From an uncultured Bacillota bacterium (lineage in GTDB: Bacteria > Bacillota > Dehalobacteriia > UBA7702): a stretch of 64,000 nucleotides of DNA. The notes beneath the pieces were generated by a model. That model was not told the DNA's origin and ran no database searches. It saw nothing but the letters and a program-made list of their open reading frames with translations. Each line of letters starts with the position of its first letter. Position 1 is the first letter of the stretch. The stretch lies in NCBI GenBank assembly GCA_902796855.1, contig CADBQN010000016.1:7038-71037 (forward strand), in the 5' to 3' direction. Positions 5,914 through 32,081 of the stretch are shown here, one piece after another. Both the position numbers and the translations under genes were made by a program.

Positions 5914-6485
5914 GTCATTTTTTTGCCTATATCAGCAAAATGAAATGGATTCGGCGCTGGGGTCTGATGAAGAACACGGCGGAAGAAAACATCATGGAGC
6001 ACAGCTGGCAGGTGGCGGTCATCGCCCACGGCCTCGCCACCGTCAAAAATGAGGTCTTCGGCGGCAGCGTCGACGCGGAACACATCGCCATGCTGGCGCT
6101 TTACCATGAGACGGGGGAAGTGATTACCGGCGATTTCGCTACGCCGATCAAATATTTTAATCCCGAAGTCAAACAGGCCATCGGCAAAATGGAACACCTG
6201 GCGAAGAAAAGGATCCATGAGATGCTTCCCGAAGAGCTGCGGCCGGCGTATCAGCCGCTGATTTTCCCCGATGAGGCGTCGGAAGAATATCAGATCGTCA
6301 AGGCCGCTGATCGGATCTGCGCCTATCTGAAATGCGTGGAGGAAATGAAATGGGGCAACCGCGAGTTCGAGAAAGCCGCGGCGTCCATCGGCCGCGACAT
6401 CGAAAAAATCGACCGGGATGAAGTGCGCTATTTTATGGAGCATTTTGTCGAAAGTTTTTCGCTGACCCTCGATGAATTGAATTGA
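5910..6485 (+). CDS. HD-domain phosphohydrolase (YfbR-like 5'-deoxynucleotidase)
   Basis: Start at internal ATG overlapping upstream stop (ATGA); HD motif region 'HSWQVAVIAH ... YHETGEVITGD'. Confidence 0.7.
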   Translation: MSHFFAYISKMKWIRRWGLMKNTAEENIMEHSWQVAVIAHGLATVKNEVFGGSVDAEHIAMLALYHETGEVITGDFATPIKYFNPEVKQAIGKMEHLAKKRIHEMLPEELRPAYQPLIFPDEASEEYQIVKAADRICAYLKCVEEMKWGNREFEKAAASIGRDIEKIDRDEVRYFMEHFVESFSLTLDELN

Positions 6486-8320: not shown

Positions 8321-8349
8321 TTGACAAAACGACGCGGGAAGCATATAAT
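8321..8349 (+). promoter_or_regulatory. Consensus sigma-A promoter TTGACA-17-TATAAT
   Basis: Perfect hexamers and spacer; followed by 5' leader stem-loop at 8353-8387. Confidence 0.55.
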
Positions 8350-8431
8350 AATCCCATAAAACCTATCAGATAAATTGGTTTTATAGGATTGATTTTTCAC
8401 GCGCAGGACTTTATGAAAGGGGGCGACGATG

Positions 8432-9208
8432 ATGTGTGAGCTCTTTTGCTTCTCCGGTTCTTCAGCCACGGCTAATACGGATCTCACGCCCTATTTAAAG
8501 GAATTTTTCAGCCATTGTCCGCGGCATCCCAACGGCTGGGGTCTGGCTGATTTTTCCGTTTGCCCCGCGGTGATGTACAAGGAATCACTTCGCGCCGGCG
8601 ACAGTGAGCTGCTCTCCACTTTGCTGAGGCGTGGGGTTTCTTCCTCCTCTTTGTTCGCTCATATCCGCTGCGCCACGGAAGGATCGGTTCGTCGGGAAAA
8701 CAGTCATCCGTTTCGCGGAGCGGACGCGACGGGCCGTACCTGGACGCTGATCCATAACGGAACGATTTTTGACGGTCTGGAACTCATCAAGTACAGAGCG
8801 GTTCAAAAGGGGGATACCGACAGCGAGCGGATTCTCCTTTATCTGCTGGATCGGATTAACTGCGAAACAAATCGTCTGGGGCGGGACTTAACGCTTTTGG
8901 AACGGTGCGGCGTCGTCGATGCTATGGTACGGCGATTATCGTACCGAAATAAACTGAATCTGATGATCCATGACGGCGCGCGGATGTATGTTCATTATAA
9001 TATGAAGAACACGCTGTACTGCGTGGAAGACCAAAACGGTATCTGCGTCGCTACGACGCCGTTGGGTGAAGAGGATTGGCGGCCGCTGCCGCTGACCGTG
9101 CTGTCTGTTTATGAACGTGGGAAATTGGTCTTCCGCGGCGGGAACCATAAAAATGAGTATCTTCCCGGCGGATTGGAAGAATTACATCGTTATGAATATT
9201 ATATTTAA
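8432..9208 (+). CDS. Class II (Ntn-type, YafJ/EgtC-like) glutamine amidotransferase
   Basis: Mature N-terminus would be Cys (M-CELFCFSG), the class-II GATase nucleophile; about 258 aa; GAAAGGGGG RBS. Confidence 0.7.
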   Translation: MCELFCFSGSSATANTDLTPYLKEFFSHCPRHPNGWGLADFSVCPAVMYKESLRAGDSELLSTLLRRGVSSSSLFAHIRCATEGSVRRENSHPFRGADATGRTWTLIHNGTIFDGLELIKYRAVQKGDTDSERILLYLLDRINCETNRLGRDLTLLERCGVVDAMVRRLSYRNKLNLMIHDGARMYVHYNMKNTLYCVEDQNGICVATTPLGEEDWRPLPLTVLSVYERGKLVFRGGNHKNEYLPGGLEELHRYEYYI

Positions 9209-9285
9209 AGGATTTTCGATTTTTTGGGCGAAACCTACTATATAACCATAAAACCAATGAGAGTTTTGTATTCTTATGAGAACCG

Positions 9286-10560
9286 ATGATTGGAATGAAG
9301 AAAATGCGTTTTTCGGATGAAGCGATCAAAGCGAATATTTTTAAGGGGCATTTCGGCCTGGAAATGGAAAGCCTGCGTGTGGACGAGCGGGGATTTCTTG
9401 CTCAGACGAAGCATCCTTTTGGCAGGGACCCCCGTATTTCCAGGGATTTCTGTGAAAATCAGGTCGAGATCATTACCGGTGTCGGGGACAGTCCCGACGA
9501 CGTTTTGAGGGAACTGACAGAGATTCAGCGGTTCGTCGCCGGCGAACTGCTCCGGCTGCCTTCGGGACCGGAATATCTGTGGCCGTTTTCCAATCCTCCG
9601 TTCGTAAAGGGAGAAGATGATATTCCCATCGCGCACTTTGGCGGCGACCAAAAAGAGAAGGACGCGTACCGCAGGTATCTCGCCGGAAAATACGGGAAAA
9701 TGCTGATGCTTTTTTCCGGTATCCACTTTAATTATTCCTTTTCCGATTCTTTTTTAACGGAAGGCTGGAAGCAAAGCGGAATGTCTTCTTTCCGCGCCTA
9801 TAAGGACAGGCTCTATCTGGATCTGGCCGGCAAGCTGACCCAATACAGCTGGCTCATCGTCTATCTGACGGCGGCTTCCTCCGTTTGCGACGATTCTTTT
9901 CTCGAATATGAGACGATCGGGAAAAAATACGCTTCGCCCCGGTGCAGTGAAATCGGATATTGGAATGATTTTGTGCCGGTTTTCGATTACGCTTCTCTCG
10001 ATCGTTATGTTGACGGAATTAAAATGTATGTCGCGGAAGGGAAACTGATCTCCGCCGCGGAACTGTATTATCCGATTCGATTGAAACCGAGGGGAGAAAA
10101 TGATCTGAACTGTTTGAGAGCAAATGGCGTTGATCATATTGAACTTCGTATGCTTGATTTGAATCCATTGTCAAAAATCGGTATTTATGAATCCGATTTC
10201 AATTTTTTACAGTTGCTGATTTTGTTCCTCGTGTCGTCGAAACGGGAGGATTTTCCGGAGAATGAGCAGATTACCGCTGTTGAAAATGTGAAAAAAGCGG
10301 CGGAATATGATGTCTCGTCCATCGTGGAGAACGGGGCCGAGAAGGATATAAAAACCGCTGCCCTGAACATAATCGACGATATGCGGTGCTTTTACGGTGC
10401 GCTTTCGGCGGATGATTTGGTGAGAAAAACACTGGCTGTTCAGCGGGAAAAAGTGCTTTCGGAGGAAAAACGTTACGCCGTAACGGTGAGAAAGCGATTC
10501 GGCGGGGATTATCTCGAAAAGGGTTTATCTCTGTCAAAAGAGCGTTCAAAAATGATATGA
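9286..10560 (+). CDS. Glutamate--cysteine ligase family protein (GshA/EgtA-like carboxylate-amine ligase)
   Basis: 'GHFGLEMESLRV ... FSGIHFNYSF' matches the E. coli GshA 'GLERETLRV ... ISGVHYNFSLP' blocks; start codon uncertain (9286/9295/9304). Confidence 0.7.
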   Translation: MIGMKKMRFSDEAIKANIFKGHFGLEMESLRVDERGFLAQTKHPFGRDPRISRDFCENQVEIITGVGDSPDDVLRELTEIQRFVAGELLRLPSGPEYLWPFSNPPFVKGEDDIPIAHFGGDQKEKDAYRRYLAGKYGKMLMLFSGIHFNYSFSDSFLTEGWKQSGMSSFRAYKDRLYLDLAGKLTQYSWLIVYLTAASSVCDDSFLEYETIGKKYASPRCSEIGYWNDFVPVFDYASLDRYVDGIKMYVAEGKLISAAELYYPIRLKPRGENDLNCLRANGVDHIELRMLDLNPLSKIGIYESDFNFLQLLILFLVSSKREDFPENEQITAVENVKKAAEYDVSSIVENGAEKDIKTAALNIIDDMRCFYGALSADDLVRKTLAVQREKVLSEEKRYAVTVRKRFGGDYLEKGLSLSKERSKMI

Positions 10561-10646
10561 TTTTTTCGTTTTAGGGTGTAGCGGTGATTGATGTTTTTAA
10601 AAAAAAGAGATATAATTTTAGATAATTTATATAAGGAGGAAAAACG

Positions 10647-12011
10647 ATGAAAAAAACGATTCTAAAACGAATGATGCTTTTTTGCTCTGTCTTTTTGTTT
10701 GCATTGTTTCCACTCTTCTTCGCATCGGAGGATGTTTTCGCCGCCGATGATGATGTAACAACGTATACGGTACTTGTCCTTGATACATCGGGACAAGCTG
10801 GTTTTAAATATAACAATCAATTGATTTATACGGCCGACACGGCAATCGGTTATGTTAAACAAGCCGCCAACACCTTTTTACTGGATGTGCTGAAAGCAAA
10901 AGGCGACCATTATGTTGCCGTTGTCTCTTTTACGGAAAACGCCGCGGTTGTCTCGGATTTTACAAATGATTTAAACACGCTTCGCGAAAAGATCAGCGCT
11001 CTTTCGTCATCCAACAAAGATCTCCGCAACATCGCTGCGGGGCTGGATACCGCGGACGCGCTTTTGCGGAAGATTCCGGATCAGGATAACATCAAAAAAA
11101 GCGCTGTCCTTTTTACGACAGGCATGACGAATACGGGGGACTACACTTATTCCGGGAAATACGACAGCGGTACGGTGGGGAGTTCCTGGAAGAACATCAG
11201 CACGGGCGTTAAACTATACGCTTACGCAAACACCGCTGTTAACTCGGCAAATACATTAAAGCAAAACGCGGAATTATATGTAGTCGGTCTGTTTGATACG
11301 ATGGATGGAATGCCGACTCAGGGCAGAGCCGTTGCCGAGTTTTTCAAAATGACGGCGAGGGATCTCGCTTCGGTGGATGAGTCTTTTTATGAAATATATG
11401 ATCCGAGCCAACTGGATCTTGGTTTTGAAGATGTCGCCGATTCCGTGACGGATATTCTGACTTTTCCGTTTAACGACGTCAGGTATTCCGATTGGTATTA
11501 CCGCAGTGTGAAATATGTATGGAAACACAATCTTATGCAGGGGACAAGTCCCGGAAAATTCAGTCCCGAAATAGCCACGACACGGGCGATGATTGTCATG
11601 GTGCTGTATAATTTTGAGGGCAACCCGACGGTGAGAACAGAAAACACCTTTAAAGACGTGGCTGTCGGTACATGGTATAACGACGCTGTTACCTGGGCTC
11701 AGAACAACGGCATTGTGCTTGGCTTTTCTCCGGAACGGTTTGGCCCCGAAATGAACATTACCCGGGAGCAGATGGCGGCTATTTTATACCGTTACGCTGA
11801 TTATAAAAACTTTGATACATCACCGAGAGCGGTCCTTTATCATTACAGAGACTGGAATAAAATCAGTAAATACGCCTTTGATTACATGGCATGGGCCAAC
11901 GCAAAAGGATATATCCAGGGTACGTCGCCCTCAACGCTTTCCCCGAGGAATGAAGCGACGCGCGCTCAGGTTGCCGCGATTTTCCACCGGTTTTTCCGGG
12001 ACGTACTGTAA
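10647..12011 (+). CDS. Secreted von Willebrand factor A domain protein with three C-terminal SLH (S-layer homology) repeats
   Basis: Signal peptide; 'TYTVLVLDTSGQ' vWA MIDAS-like start; three repeats of 'W(Y)...A...G(I)...G.SP..F.P....TRAQ.A..L.R' typical of SLH; strong RBS TAAGGAGG; markedly lower GC than neighbours. Confidence 0.75.
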   Translation: MKKTILKRMMLFCSVFLFALFPLFFASEDVFAADDDVTTYTVLVLDTSGQAGFKYNNQLIYTADTAIGYVKQAANTFLLDVLKAKGDHYVAVVSFTENAAVVSDFTNDLNTLREKISALSSSNKDLRNIAAGLDTADALLRKIPDQDNIKKSAVLFTTGMTNTGDYTYSGKYDSGTVGSSWKNISTGVKLYAYANTAVNSANTLKQNAELYVVGLFDTMDGMPTQGRAVAEFFKMTARDLASVDESFYEIYDPSQLDLGFEDVADSVTDILTFPFNDVRYSDWYYRSVKYVWKHNLMQGTSPGKFSPEIATTRAMIVMVLYNFEGNPTVRTENTFKDVAVGTWYNDAVTWAQNNGIVLGFSPERFGPEMNITREQMAAILYRYADYKNFDTSPRAVLYHYRDWNKISKYAFDYMAWANAKGYIQGTSPSTLSPRNEATRAQVAAIFHRFFRDVL

Positions 12012-12244: not shown

Positions 12245-14605
<2,361 letters not shown>

Positions 14606-29630: not shown

Positions 29631-29660
29631 AAGATGGAGTATTTTTATTCCATCTTTTTT
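29631..29660 (+). terminator. Intrinsic terminator after tRNA-Pro (AAGATGGA...TCCATCTT + TTTTTT)
   Basis: 8-bp stem, T-run. Confidence 0.55.
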
Positions 29661-29714
29661 CTATGTTTTTTCAGGAAAACGTGCCGTGAACGTGCCATTT
29701 TTTCAAGATGATTG

Positions 29715-29743: not shown

Positions 29744-29761
29744 ATGCACAAATAAAAGTTC

Positions 29762-29940
29762 ATATCTGTATCACAAGGTGCTTTGCTTAATAGGGAAGCA
29801 GGTGCGATGCCTGCACGGTCCCGCCACTGTATGGCAGAGGGAACGCCGTAACCACTCGTTCATTTTAATGGGCGGGGAAGGGGCGCTGACCGATGACGCC
29901 GAGTCAGGAGACCTGCCTTGACGATTTATGGGAATTCAGG
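29762..29940 (+). promoter_or_regulatory. Cobalamin (B12) riboswitch
   Basis: 'AATAGGGAAGCAGGTGCGATGCCTGCACGGTCCCGCCACTGTA' contains the conserved AGGGAA, GGTGC and CGGTCCCGCCACTG (B12 box at 29823-29829) elements; downstream helix 'GGGCGGGGAAGGGGCGCTGAC...GTCAGGAG'; expression-platform hairpin CACATC/GATGTG + T-rich 29950-29985 just before the RBS. Confidence 0.8.
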
Positions 29941-30000
29941 TAAGAGTTCACATCACTGAAAGATGTGGACTCTTTTATCTTTTCTAAGGAGGGATTCCCA

Positions 30001-31041
30001 TTGAACACCATTGTACTGACAGGGCGCGAAACGATCGCCGCGGAAGAGCGGCCGATGCCTTCTCCCGGTCCCGGCGAGATGGTCATTGCCGTTGTGTACT
30101 GCGGCATCTGCCGCACGGACAGAAAATGCTACCGGCAGGGGCAGCGTGATCTTCATCTGCCCCGGGTCCTCGGTCATGAATTCAGCGGTGTTATCGCCGC
30201 CGTCGGCGAAGGCGTCGCGGAGGAACGTATCGGCGAGCGCGTGACTGTCCATCCCGGGATCGCCTGCGCCGAGTGCGCTCATTGCCGGTCGGGGAACGAT
30301 CAGTGCTGCCGCGAGATGAAAATCCTCGGCTTCCATCTGGACGGCGGTTTTTCCCGTTACTGCCTGATACCGGCGGACGGCGTAAAGAACGGTATCGTGC
30401 GCCCCGTTCCGGATCATGTCCCGCTGCGGCACGCCGCGATGTGCGAGCCTCTGGGCTGCGTCGTTCATATGATTCGGCAGATGGATCCGAAAAACACGGA
30501 TTCCGCTTTGATTTTAGGCGGCGGCGTCCTCGGTTTTATGATGGCGATGCTGCTGCGTCATTACGGCGTGAGACATATCGTGATTTCCGAGCCGAATGAA
30601 AAAAAGAGAAAACTGCTGCGCCGCCGTGATTACATCGCGTGCCTGCCGGAAAAAAATCCCGAGCTCATGGAAGATATCGGCGTCAGCGGCTTTGACGCCG
30701 CCATTCCCTGCGCTCCTTATTCCGAATGTTTCGCACAGGCGGTCAACAGCCTGAAAAACGACGGTTTTTTCGGCTTTTTCAGCGGCCTGATCGATGGCGG
30801 CGCAATCACGGCAAAAGTACTGAACCAAATTCATTATAAAGAACTCTCCGTCAAAGGAGTCTACGGATGCGGAACGCGCGACACGGCGGAAGCCCTGCGG
30901 CTGATGGCGGACGGCTTTGATCTTTCCGCACTTCCCGTCACGACGGTCGGGCTGGGCGAAGCGGAAAACGTGCTGAAACAAACCGAAACGGAAAACGCCT
31001 TTTTGACGATGATTGAATATGAAGGAGGAAACGCGAAATGA
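30001..31041 (+). CDS. Zn-dependent medium-chain alcohol dehydrogenase (threonine/sorbitol dehydrogenase-like)
   Basis: TTG start 7 nt after AAGGAGGG; 'GHEFSGV' and 'CGICRTD' structural-Zn Cys cluster (CAECAHC), GxGxxG 'LGGGVLG'. Confidence 0.8.
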   Translation: MNTIVLTGRETIAAEERPMPSPGPGEMVIAVVYCGICRTDRKCYRQGQRDLHLPRVLGHEFSGVIAAVGEGVAEERIGERVTVHPGIACAECAHCRSGNDQCCREMKILGFHLDGGFSRYCLIPADGVKNGIVRPVPDHVPLRHAAMCEPLGCVVHMIRQMDPKNTDSALILGGGVLGFMMAMLLRHYGVRHIVISEPNEKKRKLLRRRDYIACLPEKNPELMEDIGVSGFDAAIPCAPYSECFAQAVNSLKNDGFFGFFSGLIDGGAITAKVLNQIHYKELSVKGVYGCGTRDTAEALRLMADGFDLSALPVTTVGLGEAENVLKQTETENAFLTMIEYEGGNAK

Positions 31042-32081
31042 TGAACATCGGACACGCCGTCAACGACCTGATTGCCGGCAAAGATCTTTCTTTCAGCGAT
31101 ACGGAAGCGATCTTCCGTCAGATTATACAGAATGAGGAGTCCGCCATGGATCAGGGCGCTTTTCTCGCCGCCATCACGGCGAAAGGGGCCGTGCCCGAAG
31201 AGATCGCGGCGATTTGGAAAGTCATTGACGAAACGGATACAAATAAAGTGACCATCAGAACGGAGCGGCCATTGGCGGAAAACAGCGGCACCGGTATGGA
31301 CGCTTTTAAGACCTTTAATATCAGTACCGCCGCGGCGGTCGCGGCATCATCCGCCGGAGCGGCGGTGGCGCGCCACGGTTCCAGAGGGATCACTTCCAAA
31401 TGCGGCACCGTTGATGTGGCGGAAGCCCTTGGCGTGCGGACGGAACTGAGCGTGGAAAAAGTAGCGAAATCCGTTGAAACCTGCGGTATCGGTCTGTTTA
31501 ACGGGATGAGCCCGCTGGTCCACCCGGCGGGCCTCGGCCGGATTTTAAGTCAGATCCACTTCGGAACCGTGCTGAACATCGCCGCGTCTTTGGCGAACCC
31601 CTGCGCTCCCGTTTACGGTCTGCGCGGCGTCAATGATCCCGCGATCATCCGCTCCACGGCGGAGATCATGCGTCAGATCGGTTACCGCCGCGTCTTCGTT
31701 CTCCACGGTTATCTCGGTGAAGATAACTTGGGGATTGACGAGGCAACCACGCTGGGCAGGACGATCTATACGGAAATCGACGCGGAGGGGAACGTGACGG
31801 AGGGAGCGTTCTATCCCGAGGATCTTGGCTTAAAACGCGGCAAAAAAGAAGAGATTGCGGCGCTGGGCGACGCCGTTAGGGAGGCGGCAAGACTCAGGGA
31901 GATCCTCAATGGGAGAGGGGGCGCGTCGGCCCGGGATATCGTTGCGCTGAACGGCGGACTGATCCTCTATCTGACGGGACTTGCCGGGACGATCCAAAAA
32001 GGAATCGACCTCGCCCGGGAACAGCTTGAAACGGGCAAAGCCGGGGAAAAACTGAACGAATGGGTCGCGGCTCAGAGCTAA
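31038..32081 (+). CDS. Glycosyltransferase family 3 / anthranilate phosphoribosyltransferase (TrpD)-like protein
   Basis: 'GTGMDAFKTFNISTAAAVAASSAGAAVARHGSRGITSKCGTVDVAEALG' matches the TrpD 'GTGGD...NISTA...A.AG..V.KHGNR' core; overlaps ADH stop (ATGA). Confidence 0.7.
   Translation: MMNIGHAVNDLIAGKDLSFSDTEAIFRQIIQNEESAMDQGAFLAAITAKGAVPEEIAAIWKVIDETDTNKVTIRTERPLAENSGTGMDAFKTFNISTAAAVAASSAGAAVARHGSRGITSKCGTVDVAEALGVRTELSVEKVAKSVETCGIGLFNGMSPLVHPAGLGRILSQIHFGTVLNIAASLANPCAPVYGLRGVNDPAIIRSTAEIMRQIGYRRVFVLHGYLGEDNLGIDEATTLGRTIYTEIDAEGNVTEGAFYPEDLGLKRGKKEEIAALGDAVREAARLREILNGRGGASARDIVALNGGLILYLTGLAGTIQKGIDLAREQLETGKAGEKLNEWVAAQS

Follow-up and report, generated by a model that had tools for sequence, protein, structure and literature searches.

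A 64,000-nucleotide stretch of DNA from an uncultured Bacillota bacterium of the GTDB lineage Dehalobacteriia (contig CADBQN010000016.1; hereafter, the window) carries two adjacent genes that appear to form a γ-glutamyl add-and-remove module. The first encodes an amidotransferase-fold protein of the N-terminal nucleophile (Ntn) type, and the second encodes a homologue of the glutamate-cysteine ligase GshA. The balance of probability, by a modest measure, favors a reading in which the ligase makes γ-Glu-Cys or a closely similar compound, the γ-glutamyl bond of this compound or of its oxidized, conjugated, or imported forms is cleaved by the Ntn protein, and the operon belongs to a cysteine regulon. 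The observations behind this reading are the gene families, their conserved residues, the conservation of the pairing, a set of gene fusions, a neighborhood of sulfur-metabolism genes in related genomes, and an operator motif common to these genes. A preliminary description of the window had proposed a distinct γ-glutamyl module at this locus. This remains the best reading, and examination of the N-terminal cysteine, of the ligase type, and of the conservation of the pair failed to refute it.

The features of the locus are as follows.

8321-8349, + strand: σA/σ70 consensus promoter (TTGACA at 8321-8326, 17 nt, TATAAT at 8344-8349), a 12/12 match
8350-8390, no strand assigned: extended palindrome that can form an RNA hairpin, with a predicted operator core at 8357-8383 (folding and position weight matrix)
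8416-8423, + strand: ribosome-binding site AAAGGGGG, read from the sequence, 8 nt before the ATG at 8432
8432-9208, + strand: standalone class-II (Ntn) glutamine-amidotransferase-fold protein of 258 amino acids, YafJ/EgtC-like, PF13230 (Pfam, alignment, and structure model)
9173-9202, + strand: weak promoter-like site (9/12) just upstream of the spacer (promoter scan)
9209-9285, + strand: 77-nt intergenic spacer, the position of a GCS2-like gene in the closest relatives (sequence and locus comparison)
9232-9244, + strand: left half-copy of the operator motif, AACCTACTATATA, with a matrix score of 13.7, which is not significant
9286-10560, + strand: standalone GshA-type glutamate-cysteine ligase homologue of 424 amino acids, PF04262

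The two proteins

The two genes are co-directional, as had been noted, and occupy open reading frames 8429-9208 and 9286-10560. The first frame comprises 259 amino acids (MMCELF...) and holds a second in-frame ATG at 8432. An M-C-(E/K) N-terminus is present in all 33 aligned homologues, such that 34 of 34 sequences begin with M-C when the window protein is included. Therefore, the true start is ATG 8432, and translation from this codon would expose the cysteine as the first residue once the methionine is removed. The N-terminal cysteine (M-C-ELF) reported in the preliminary description is consequently retained after correct start assignment.

The protein matches PF13230 (GATase_4) with 97.3 bits against a gathering score of 23 (E = 9e-28). 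When 1.84 billion cluster representatives were searched with a profile, 6537 of them proved to belong to this family at E <= 0.001. Cys1, Arg80, Asn110-Gly111, and Asp131 are invariant in the family alignment, and R80, N110-G111, and D131 are also found in YafJ. By analogy with PurF and GlmS, we take Cys1 to be the nucleophile, Arg80 to contact the α-carboxylate, Asn110-Gly111 to form the oxyanion hole, and Asp131 to contact the α-amino group. Because these head-group residues are kept, the substrate presumably bears a free glutamyl head, and therefore would be glutamine or a γ-glutamyl amide.

Sequence and structure comparisons place the protein among standalone relatives of this kind. Escherichia coli YafJ is 28% identical to it (E = 1e-19), and PA1307 (PDB 1te5) is its top sequence match among structures (E = 7e-13). 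An AlphaFold2 model (pLDDT 92.3, pTM 0.90) shows the Ntn α-β-β-α sandwich. In a Foldseek ranking, 1te5 comes first, followed by EgtC (4zfj/4zfk/4zfl; TM 0.65-0.74) and then by the glutaminase domains of GlmS and PurF, all with a probability of 1.00. However, the protein scores only 51 bits with the EgtC equivalog model (TIGR03442), whose cut-off is 218.65. Thus, of the earlier assignment as an EgtC/YafJ-like amidotransferase, the standalone class-II Ntn fold and the PF13230 membership stand, whereas identification with EgtC itself does not. Judged from its residues and modeled fold, the protein is predicted to be a γ-glutamyl-amide hydrolase.

The second protein matches PF04262 (Glu_cys_ligase) with 219.9 bits against a gathering score of 27 (E = 5e-65). 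Its homologues align from Met7, such that translation might instead begin at 9295 or 9304. Among NCBIfam models, the ligase half of GshAB (NF002688) scores best, with 289.3 bits against an equivalog cut-off of 425, and the GshA equivalog model TIGR01434 yields 152 bits against a cut-off of 393.3. Because both scores lie below the equivalog cut-offs, we assign the window ligase to a separate subfamily within PF04262. It covers only positions 8-397 of the 756-position GshAB model and ends at 424 amino acids, without an ATP-grasp glutathione synthetase domain. Sequence matches in the PDB include 3ln6 (1e-43) and E. coli GshA 1v4g (4e-29).

Both GshA blocks that had been recognized earlier (GLE.E.LRV and SG.H.N.S) are present, as FGLEMESLRV and SGIHFNYS. 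In an alignment of the window ligase with E. coli GshA and 12 family members, the columns that correspond to E. coli residues E27, E29, Y131, R132, H150, Y241, Y300, E328, and R330 are invariant. On the basis of the 1v4g and 2d32 structures, we take Y131, Y241, and Y300 to be the tyrosines of the cysteine site, and the other residues to act at the metal, ATP, and glutamate sites. Because these active-site columns are invariant, the protein is very likely a working γ-glutamyl-amino-acid ligase, and cysteine is its most probable acceptor. The PF04107 (GCS2) profile gives no match to the window ligase, and with the YbdK subfamily model TIGR02050 it reaches 15.3 bits, where 176.4 is the cut-off. 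The ligase is therefore not of the YbdK type, a grouping that had been raised as a possible objection to the module. The earlier label of GshA/EgtA-family ligase can be kept in its first half, in the sense of GshA or of the GshF N-terminal domain, but the absence of a PF04107 match removes the EgtA half.

Conservation, a second ligase, and gene fusions

More than 1000 homologues were scored for each of the two proteins, mostly from Clostridia metagenome bins, and matches to both were repeatedly drawn from contigs of equal size. A genome scan that used one genome per GTDB species, together with the Ntn-protein alignment, confirmed at least 560 relatives, and the best 80 of these were analyzed as species-level loci. 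A PF04262 ligase gene is found near the Ntn gene in 60 of the 80, and thus the pair is conserved in relatives. Both this ligase and a second, GCS2-like ligase are present in 49 loci (triads), whereas 11 have only the PF04262 ligase, 11 have only the GCS2-like ligase, and 9 have neither. For the 47 loci whose flanking sequence extends 3 kb or more on each side, the corresponding numbers are 30, 7, 6, and 4, such that at least one ligase is present in 43 of these (91%). The module occurs in Clostridia, as well as in Erysipelotrichaceae and in some bins of Bacteroidales and Kiritimatiellae.

The gene for the second ligase is on the same strand, and its product, of ~460 amino acids, is a divergent member of GCS2 (Pfam GCS2 at 1.5e-6). 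This protein is most similar to the plant-type glutamate-cysteine ligase (PDB 6gmo and 2gwc, E ~5e-13). With GAT denoting the Ntn gene and GCL the PF04262 ligase gene, three gene orders are observed: GAT-GCS2-GCL, GCL-GAT-GCS2, and GCS2-GCL-GAT. The spacers between module genes are often shorter than 30 nt, or the genes overlap.

No GCS2-like gene was detected anywhere in the 64-kb window. The closest relatives of the window genes (loci L003, L088, and L090; 51-57% identity) are GAT-GCS2-GCL triads, and because of this the lineage represented by the window probably lost its GCS2-like gene, an event that the 77-nt spacer would mark. An EgtA-like (GCS2) gene, of the kind invoked in the preliminary description, is part of the module for most relatives, whereas the window lacks one. 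Loci with only the pair also exist elsewhere (for example, L084 and L085), and in some loci the Ntn gene has no ligase nearby and adjoins Met/Cys-type ABC transporters (L033 and L083).

Two further observations concern this arrangement. The half-copy of the operator motif within the spacer was considered as a second operator in front of the ligase gene, and was rejected because it is a half-site only, with a matrix score inside the range of shuffled sequences. At L027:1970-3022, the Ntn gene continues in frame into a fragment of ~105 amino acids that resembles the ligase N-terminus and is followed by a stop codon; the pair has probably degenerated at this locus.

Each pairing of the three proteins is also found as a fusion. 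P0281 (700 amino acids; a cluster of 4 members from 4 contigs) has an N-terminal Ntn (GATase_4) domain joined to a PF04262 ligase. P0267 (717 amino acids) has an N-terminal Ntn domain joined to a GCS2-like ligase, which is 57% identical to the L003 protein. In a Butyricicoccus bin (L057:8793-11483), the GCS2-like and PF04262 ligases are encoded by a single open reading frame of 896 amino acids. This last fusion recalls the two-ligase enzyme GshF, except that a GCS2-like domain replaces the ATP-grasp domain of GshF. The existence of all three pairwise fusions is an argument for a common process in which the three proteins take part.

The domain layout of P0281 matches that of the E. coli glutathionylspermidine synthetase/amidase Gss, in which a Cys-nucleophile amidase is N-terminal to an ATP-dependent ligase, and in which the two domains break and make the same thiol-conjugate amide bond. 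The likeness is one of analogy, because the folds of Gss (CHAP amidase and ATP-grasp-like synthetase) are unrelated to those of the module proteins and its substrate is different.

Promoter, predicted operator, and neighboring genes

The perfect TTGACA-17-TATAAT promoter reported previously was confirmed as a 12/12 match at 8321-8349, and it is the sole match of this quality between positions 6000 and 13000. By our own estimate, ~0.02 perfect matches are expected by chance per 64 kb when both strands are considered. Strong promoters are also common in front of the module elsewhere. Among 63 scored upstream regions (62 related loci plus the window), 20 score 12/12 and a further 11 score 11/12.

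An AT-rich, palindromic motif, wwwwC[CA]TA[CT]TAwwnnnATAGGwwww, is common to these upstream regions. It was found beside the -10 box in 46 loci; where the promoter is good, its first position mostly falls in the interval from -3 to +11, counted from the end of this box. When a position weight matrix trained only on the other loci, with the window left out, was run over all 64 kb of the window, 8357-8383 scored highest, on both strands (21.9 and 21.6). The maxima obtained with shuffled sequences average 11.7, and the highest is 20.0. The matched core begins 7 nt past the -10 box. Throughout the 988 kb of loci, strong sites are intergenic in 72 of 74 cases. Those outside the module precede cysK (8), Rrf2 genes (5), genes for cystathionine γ-synthase or methionine γ-lyase (CGS/MGL; 5), metQ (3), amino-acid ABC transporter genes (2), and patB (2).

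The RNA corresponding to 8350-8390 folds into a hairpin whose interrupted stem has 13 bp and whose loop has 13 nt; the U-rich run UUGAUUUUU comes next. The 86-nt leader has a ΔG of -20.7 kcal/mol (z = -2.5), and 3 of 200 shuffled sequences fold equally well. The leader stem-loop described earlier at 8353-8387 is contained in this hairpin. However, because the family-wide operator matrix has its best match in the window at this site, the element is best read as a predicted, palindromic repressor operator that lies over the transcription start and is kept throughout the family. The hairpin was also considered as an intrinsic terminator or attenuator, and this was rejected: a terminator scan did not return 8350-8397, and the stem is A/U-rich rather than G+C-rich. 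No riboswitch, T-box, or other known RNA was detected at Rfam gathering scores in the leader of the window or of 9 related loci.

The 10-mer CCATAAAACC has three exact copies in the window, at 8354, 9246, and 60990, and the first gene of the pair is bracketed by the first two. When one mismatch is allowed, 13 copies are found in the window versus 3.9 expected.

Clustering of crude open-reading-frame calls from the 80 loci revealed which gene families recur near the module. These include Cys_Met_Meta_PP enzymes (19 loci), CysK (15), an Rrf2 regulator (14), the C-S lyase PatB (10), and MetN/MetI/MetQ, and further repeated neighbors are CysE, LuxS, sulfite reductase, and thioredoxin reductase. 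In L003, the module is directly downstream of an operon for turning methionine into cysteine, and in L090 it adjoins sulfate-activation genes and a cysteine synthase gene. The operator is thus common to cysteine-metabolism genes and overlaps the module promoter, as was looked for in a member of a cysteine regulon. This link to cysteine and methionine metabolism had gone unseen in the preliminary description.

Because of its co-location with the module and its apparent autoregulation, a CymR-like Rrf2 protein is the candidate repressor for this operator. CymR is a repressor of cysteine metabolism that works with CysK and O-acetylserine (PMC3828012, PMC2940859). The arrangement resembles the CymR regulon of Bacillus and Staphylococcus, in that an Rrf2 gene matching the CymR model resides beside the module in the 14 loci and that an AT-rich palindromic operator is common to cysK, transporter, and lyase genes. 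It differs in that the regulator scores under the CymR equivalog cut-off (101.8 bits versus 195) and in that the window itself has no regulator gene. Genes for Rrf2, cysK, CGS, patB, cysE, and metN were not found in the 64-kb window by tblastn (E <= 1e-3).

No E. coli-type GshB was found in the window or in ~88 loci, although a distant ATP-grasp enzyme would escape this search. Also, there are no EgtB-, EgtD-, or EgtE-like genes around the pair in the window, as had been stated before, and neither these nor OvoA-like genes are among the recurrent neighbors in the 80 loci. Three other families do recur, in 6-7 loci each. A GDSL-type hydrolase gene directly follows the ligase gene in L016, L019, L025, and L045. 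A protein of 206 amino acids with a weak match to C39-like peptidases is encoded near the module in L026, L046, L060, L066, L068, L072, and L080, and a MATE-type exporter is encoded near it in L021, L023, L031, L045, and L064. These proteins could represent extra pathway or export steps.

The region downstream of the pair in the window has two further features.

10588-10616, + strand: promoter-like site (TTGATG, 17 nt, TATAAT; 10/12) for the vWA-SLH gene (promoter scan)
10647-12011, + strand: gene for a vWA-SLH surface protein, which follows the pair

The preliminary description grouped the vWA-SLH gene with the pair by GC content. As a part of the module, this gene was rejected: outside the species of the window (L001 and L002) it does not adjoin the pair, and it has a promoter-like site of its own. 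The lower GC content ascribed to the three genes relative to their flanks was borne out, but the drop is modest. The window has a mean GC fraction of 0.52, and the values are 0.521 for the amidotransferase-like gene, 0.475 for the ligase gene, and 0.465 for the vWA-SLH gene. The values at third codon positions are 0.58, 0.54, and 0.52, respectively, compared with 0.65-0.70 in flanking genes.

Farther downstream, 12245-14605 on the - strand encodes a class-A penicillin-binding protein (transglycosylase plus transpeptidase) with a poly-Lys N-terminus. Its C-terminal tail has a long acidic part and then a poly-glutamine part with ~40 consecutive Gln residues (coding near 12300-12500). A cobalamin riboswitch resides at 29759-29934 on the + strand (94 bits), in a region downstream of homoserine dehydrogenase and aspartokinase genes. 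It precedes genes for a zinc-type alcohol dehydrogenase-like protein and a glycosyl-transferase-family-3 protein (29965-32081). The third-best match of the operator matrix in the window, at 29644-29669 on the - strand, is just upstream of this riboswitch. Its score of 19.1 falls within the range of the best shuffles, and therefore the match may be due to chance.

Proposed mechanism, alternatives, and significance

We propose that the two genes would constitute a γ-glutamyl add-and-remove module that serves cysteine metabolism. A repressor of the Rrf2/CymR-like kind that responds to cysteine would silence its very strong promoter by binding the palindromic operator over the transcription start. 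In the first step, which is suggested by the conserved active-site residues, the PF04262 ligase would use ATP to link glutamate, through its γ-carboxyl group, to the cysteine amino group, giving γ-Glu-Cys; the acceptor might alternatively be a closely related sulfur amino acid. The module has no linked glutathione synthetase, and therefore γ-Glu-Cys or a derivative is probably the end product. In the second step, for which the fold, the catalytic residues, and family precedent argue, the N-terminal cysteine of the Ntn protein would hydrolyse a γ-glutamyl amide bond. The target could be the ligase product, its disulfide, its S-conjugate, or an imported γ-glutamyl peptide, and glutamate and the cysteine moiety would be released. 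The joint effect of the ligase and the hydrolase would be to keep the cysteine/thiol pool buffered or turning over. The substrates, the physiological direction of flux, the repressor that acts, and the sign of its effect in this scheme are what we infer from the locus and its relatives.

Parts of the scheme have precedents. EgtC of mycobacteria is a proven γ-glutamyl amidohydrolase, and it resembles the window Ntn protein in its standalone class-II fold, its N-terminal cysteine, and its partnership with a γ-glutamyl ligase; it is the second-best structural match. The two proteins are only 17-18% identical, however, and the partner ligase in the window is of the GshA type rather than EgtA (GCS2). 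The nearest relatives by both sequence and structure are the standalone PF13230 proteins YafJ (E. coli) and PA1307 (1te5), but yafJ in E. coli K-12 adjoins no ligase gene. The ligase is akin to E. coli GshA and to the N-terminal domain of GshF (3ln6 from Streptococcus agalactiae, 3ln7 from Pasteurella), which also belong to PF04262 and can be aligned with it over ~300-400 residues. In contrast to these enzymes, the window ligase (25% identical to E. coli GshA) is linked to an Ntn hydrolase and, usually in relatives, to a GCS2-like ligase as well, and no gshB gene is linked to it.

A further precedent is fungal. Yeast Dug2p-Dug3p cleaves glutathione and γ-Glu-Met and serves the supply of sulfur amino acids (PMC7617739; Kaur et al. 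2012, ref 57 in PMC7340319). The likeness to the module is one of enzyme type, in that a class-II amidotransferase-type enzyme acts on the γ-glutamyl bond of thiol peptides. Dug3p requires its partner Dug2p and is described as restricted to fungi (PMC7340319), whereas no Dug2-like gene was seen at the module. A 2008 survey of pupylation and carboxylate-amine ligases placed a different ligase family beside amidotransferase-like peptidases (PMC2588565).

Several points weigh against the proposed mechanism. If a synthetase and a hydrolase of the same bond are co-expressed, ATP is wasted unless the enzymes are gated or act on different species. Glutathionylspermidine synthetase/amidase avoids such a futile cycle through oxidative inactivation of its amidase cysteine. 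A repressor that acted as Bacillus subtilis CymR does would allow induction under cysteine limitation, which suits a hydrolase that releases cysteine better than a ligase that consumes it. PF04262 homologues of lactobacilli produce several γ-glutamyl dipeptides. With a GCS2-like ligase present in most relatives, the full pathway may hold a step that is absent from the window. The lack of an Rrf2 gene in the 64-kb window counts against the proposed repressor, and the apparent likeness of the operator motif to the B. subtilis CymR box is tentative. Finally, fusions in which the amidotransferase domain comes first also have the classical layout of true amidotransferases.

An unlikely alternative is that the two genes have independent functions within one regulon. 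The Ntn protein would then serve in salvage, releasing cysteine or methionine from glutathione or γ-glutamyl peptides that the cell has imported. The ligase would separately supply γ-Glu-Cys, for example for glutathione made by a GshB encoded elsewhere. Such a division of labor is consistent with Ntn genes that directly follow MetNIQ- or cystine-type ABC transporter genes and have no ligase (L033, L083, and L060), and with the weak promoter-like site ahead of the window ligase. Induction under sulfur limitation also suits salvage, as it does for the yeast DUG genes (PMC7617739). However, a ligase gene resides beside the Ntn gene in 91% of fully flanked loci, and the occurrence of this linkage in three gene orders argues for selection on linkage itself. 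The fusions of all three pairs, and the absence of a GshB-like gene from ~88 loci, likewise speak for a joint function.

A pathway with a γ-glutamyl carrier, similar to that for ergothioneine, has a distinctly low probability in our view. Here γ-glutamylation would protect or activate cysteine or another amine for modification by an enzyme encoded elsewhere, and the Ntn hydrolase would remove glutamate from the modified product, which would not be γ-Glu-Cys. Such a pathway follows the logic of EgtA and EgtC, it would combine an EgtC-like fold with GCS2- and GshA-type ligases, and it involves no futile cycle; moreover, the GDSL hydrolase, C39-like peptidase, and MATE exporter found near some modules could supply steps. 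The neighborhoods offer no consistently linked modifying enzyme, though, and EgtB-, EgtD-, or OvoA-like genes were not found in them. The window holds two genes only, and its Ntn protein scores far under the EgtC equivalog cut-off.

Very unlikely is a two-subunit, glutamine-dependent amidoligase, comparable in logic to asparagine synthetase B or GatA/GatB, in which the Ntn protein would split glutamine and pass the ammonia to an ATP-dependent ligase that amidates a carboxylate; the class-II layout of the rare fusions (amidotransferase-like domain N-terminal to either ligase), the tight coupling of the module genes, and the intact glutamine head-group residues would suit it, but the ligase keeps the residues by which E. 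coli GshA binds glutamate and the amino-acid acceptor, and ammonia as the acceptor would merely regenerate glutamine. We know of no class-II amidotransferase with a separate synthase subunit. Some Ntn genes (L033 and L083), moreover, have no ligase nearby and lie beside Met/Cys-type ABC transporters. The closest characterized standalone relatives, EgtC and Dug3 (PMC7617739), are hydrolases rather than ammonia donors.

The add-and-remove module permits a more far-reaching extension, which is speculative and on balance improbable. The module might be the synthesis-and-turnover system for the main low-molecular-weight thiol in those Clostridia of the gut and rumen that are strict anaerobes. This thiol would be γ-Glu-Cys, or a derivative whose synthesis involves the second, GCS2-like ligase. 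The hydrolase, with its cysteine nucleophile, would then serve as a redox- or cysteine-gated valve, as in glutathionylspermidine synthetase/amidase.

Cysteine buffering and thiol redox in strictly anaerobic Clostridia are poorly understood. To our knowledge, these organisms do not make glutathione (with the exception of a few GshF carriers), bacillithiol, or mycothiol. Likewise, the only substrates we know of in the PF13230 family are those of EgtC and fungal Dug3. The parts of the module come from known families, and the logic of adding and removing a γ-glutamyl group is known from ergothioneine synthesis. What appears to be new is the combination of a PF13230 hydrolase with a GshA-type ligase, a plant-type ligase, or both, in a cysteine regulon of Clostridia, with the window representing a reduced, two-gene form. 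No description of such a module was found in the literature on this gene combination, on PF13230/YafJ, or on Clostridial thiols. A 2026 paper on glutathione in E. rectale reports no gshA or gshB there and leaves the module unmentioned.

The presence of the module in many gut and rumen species makes it a concrete, testable candidate for a system that buffers cysteine or thiol redox. It would also give the YafJ-like PF13230 family its first physiological context. In addition, the strong promoter with its tight operator may be a useful regulatory part for anaerobic Firmicutes.

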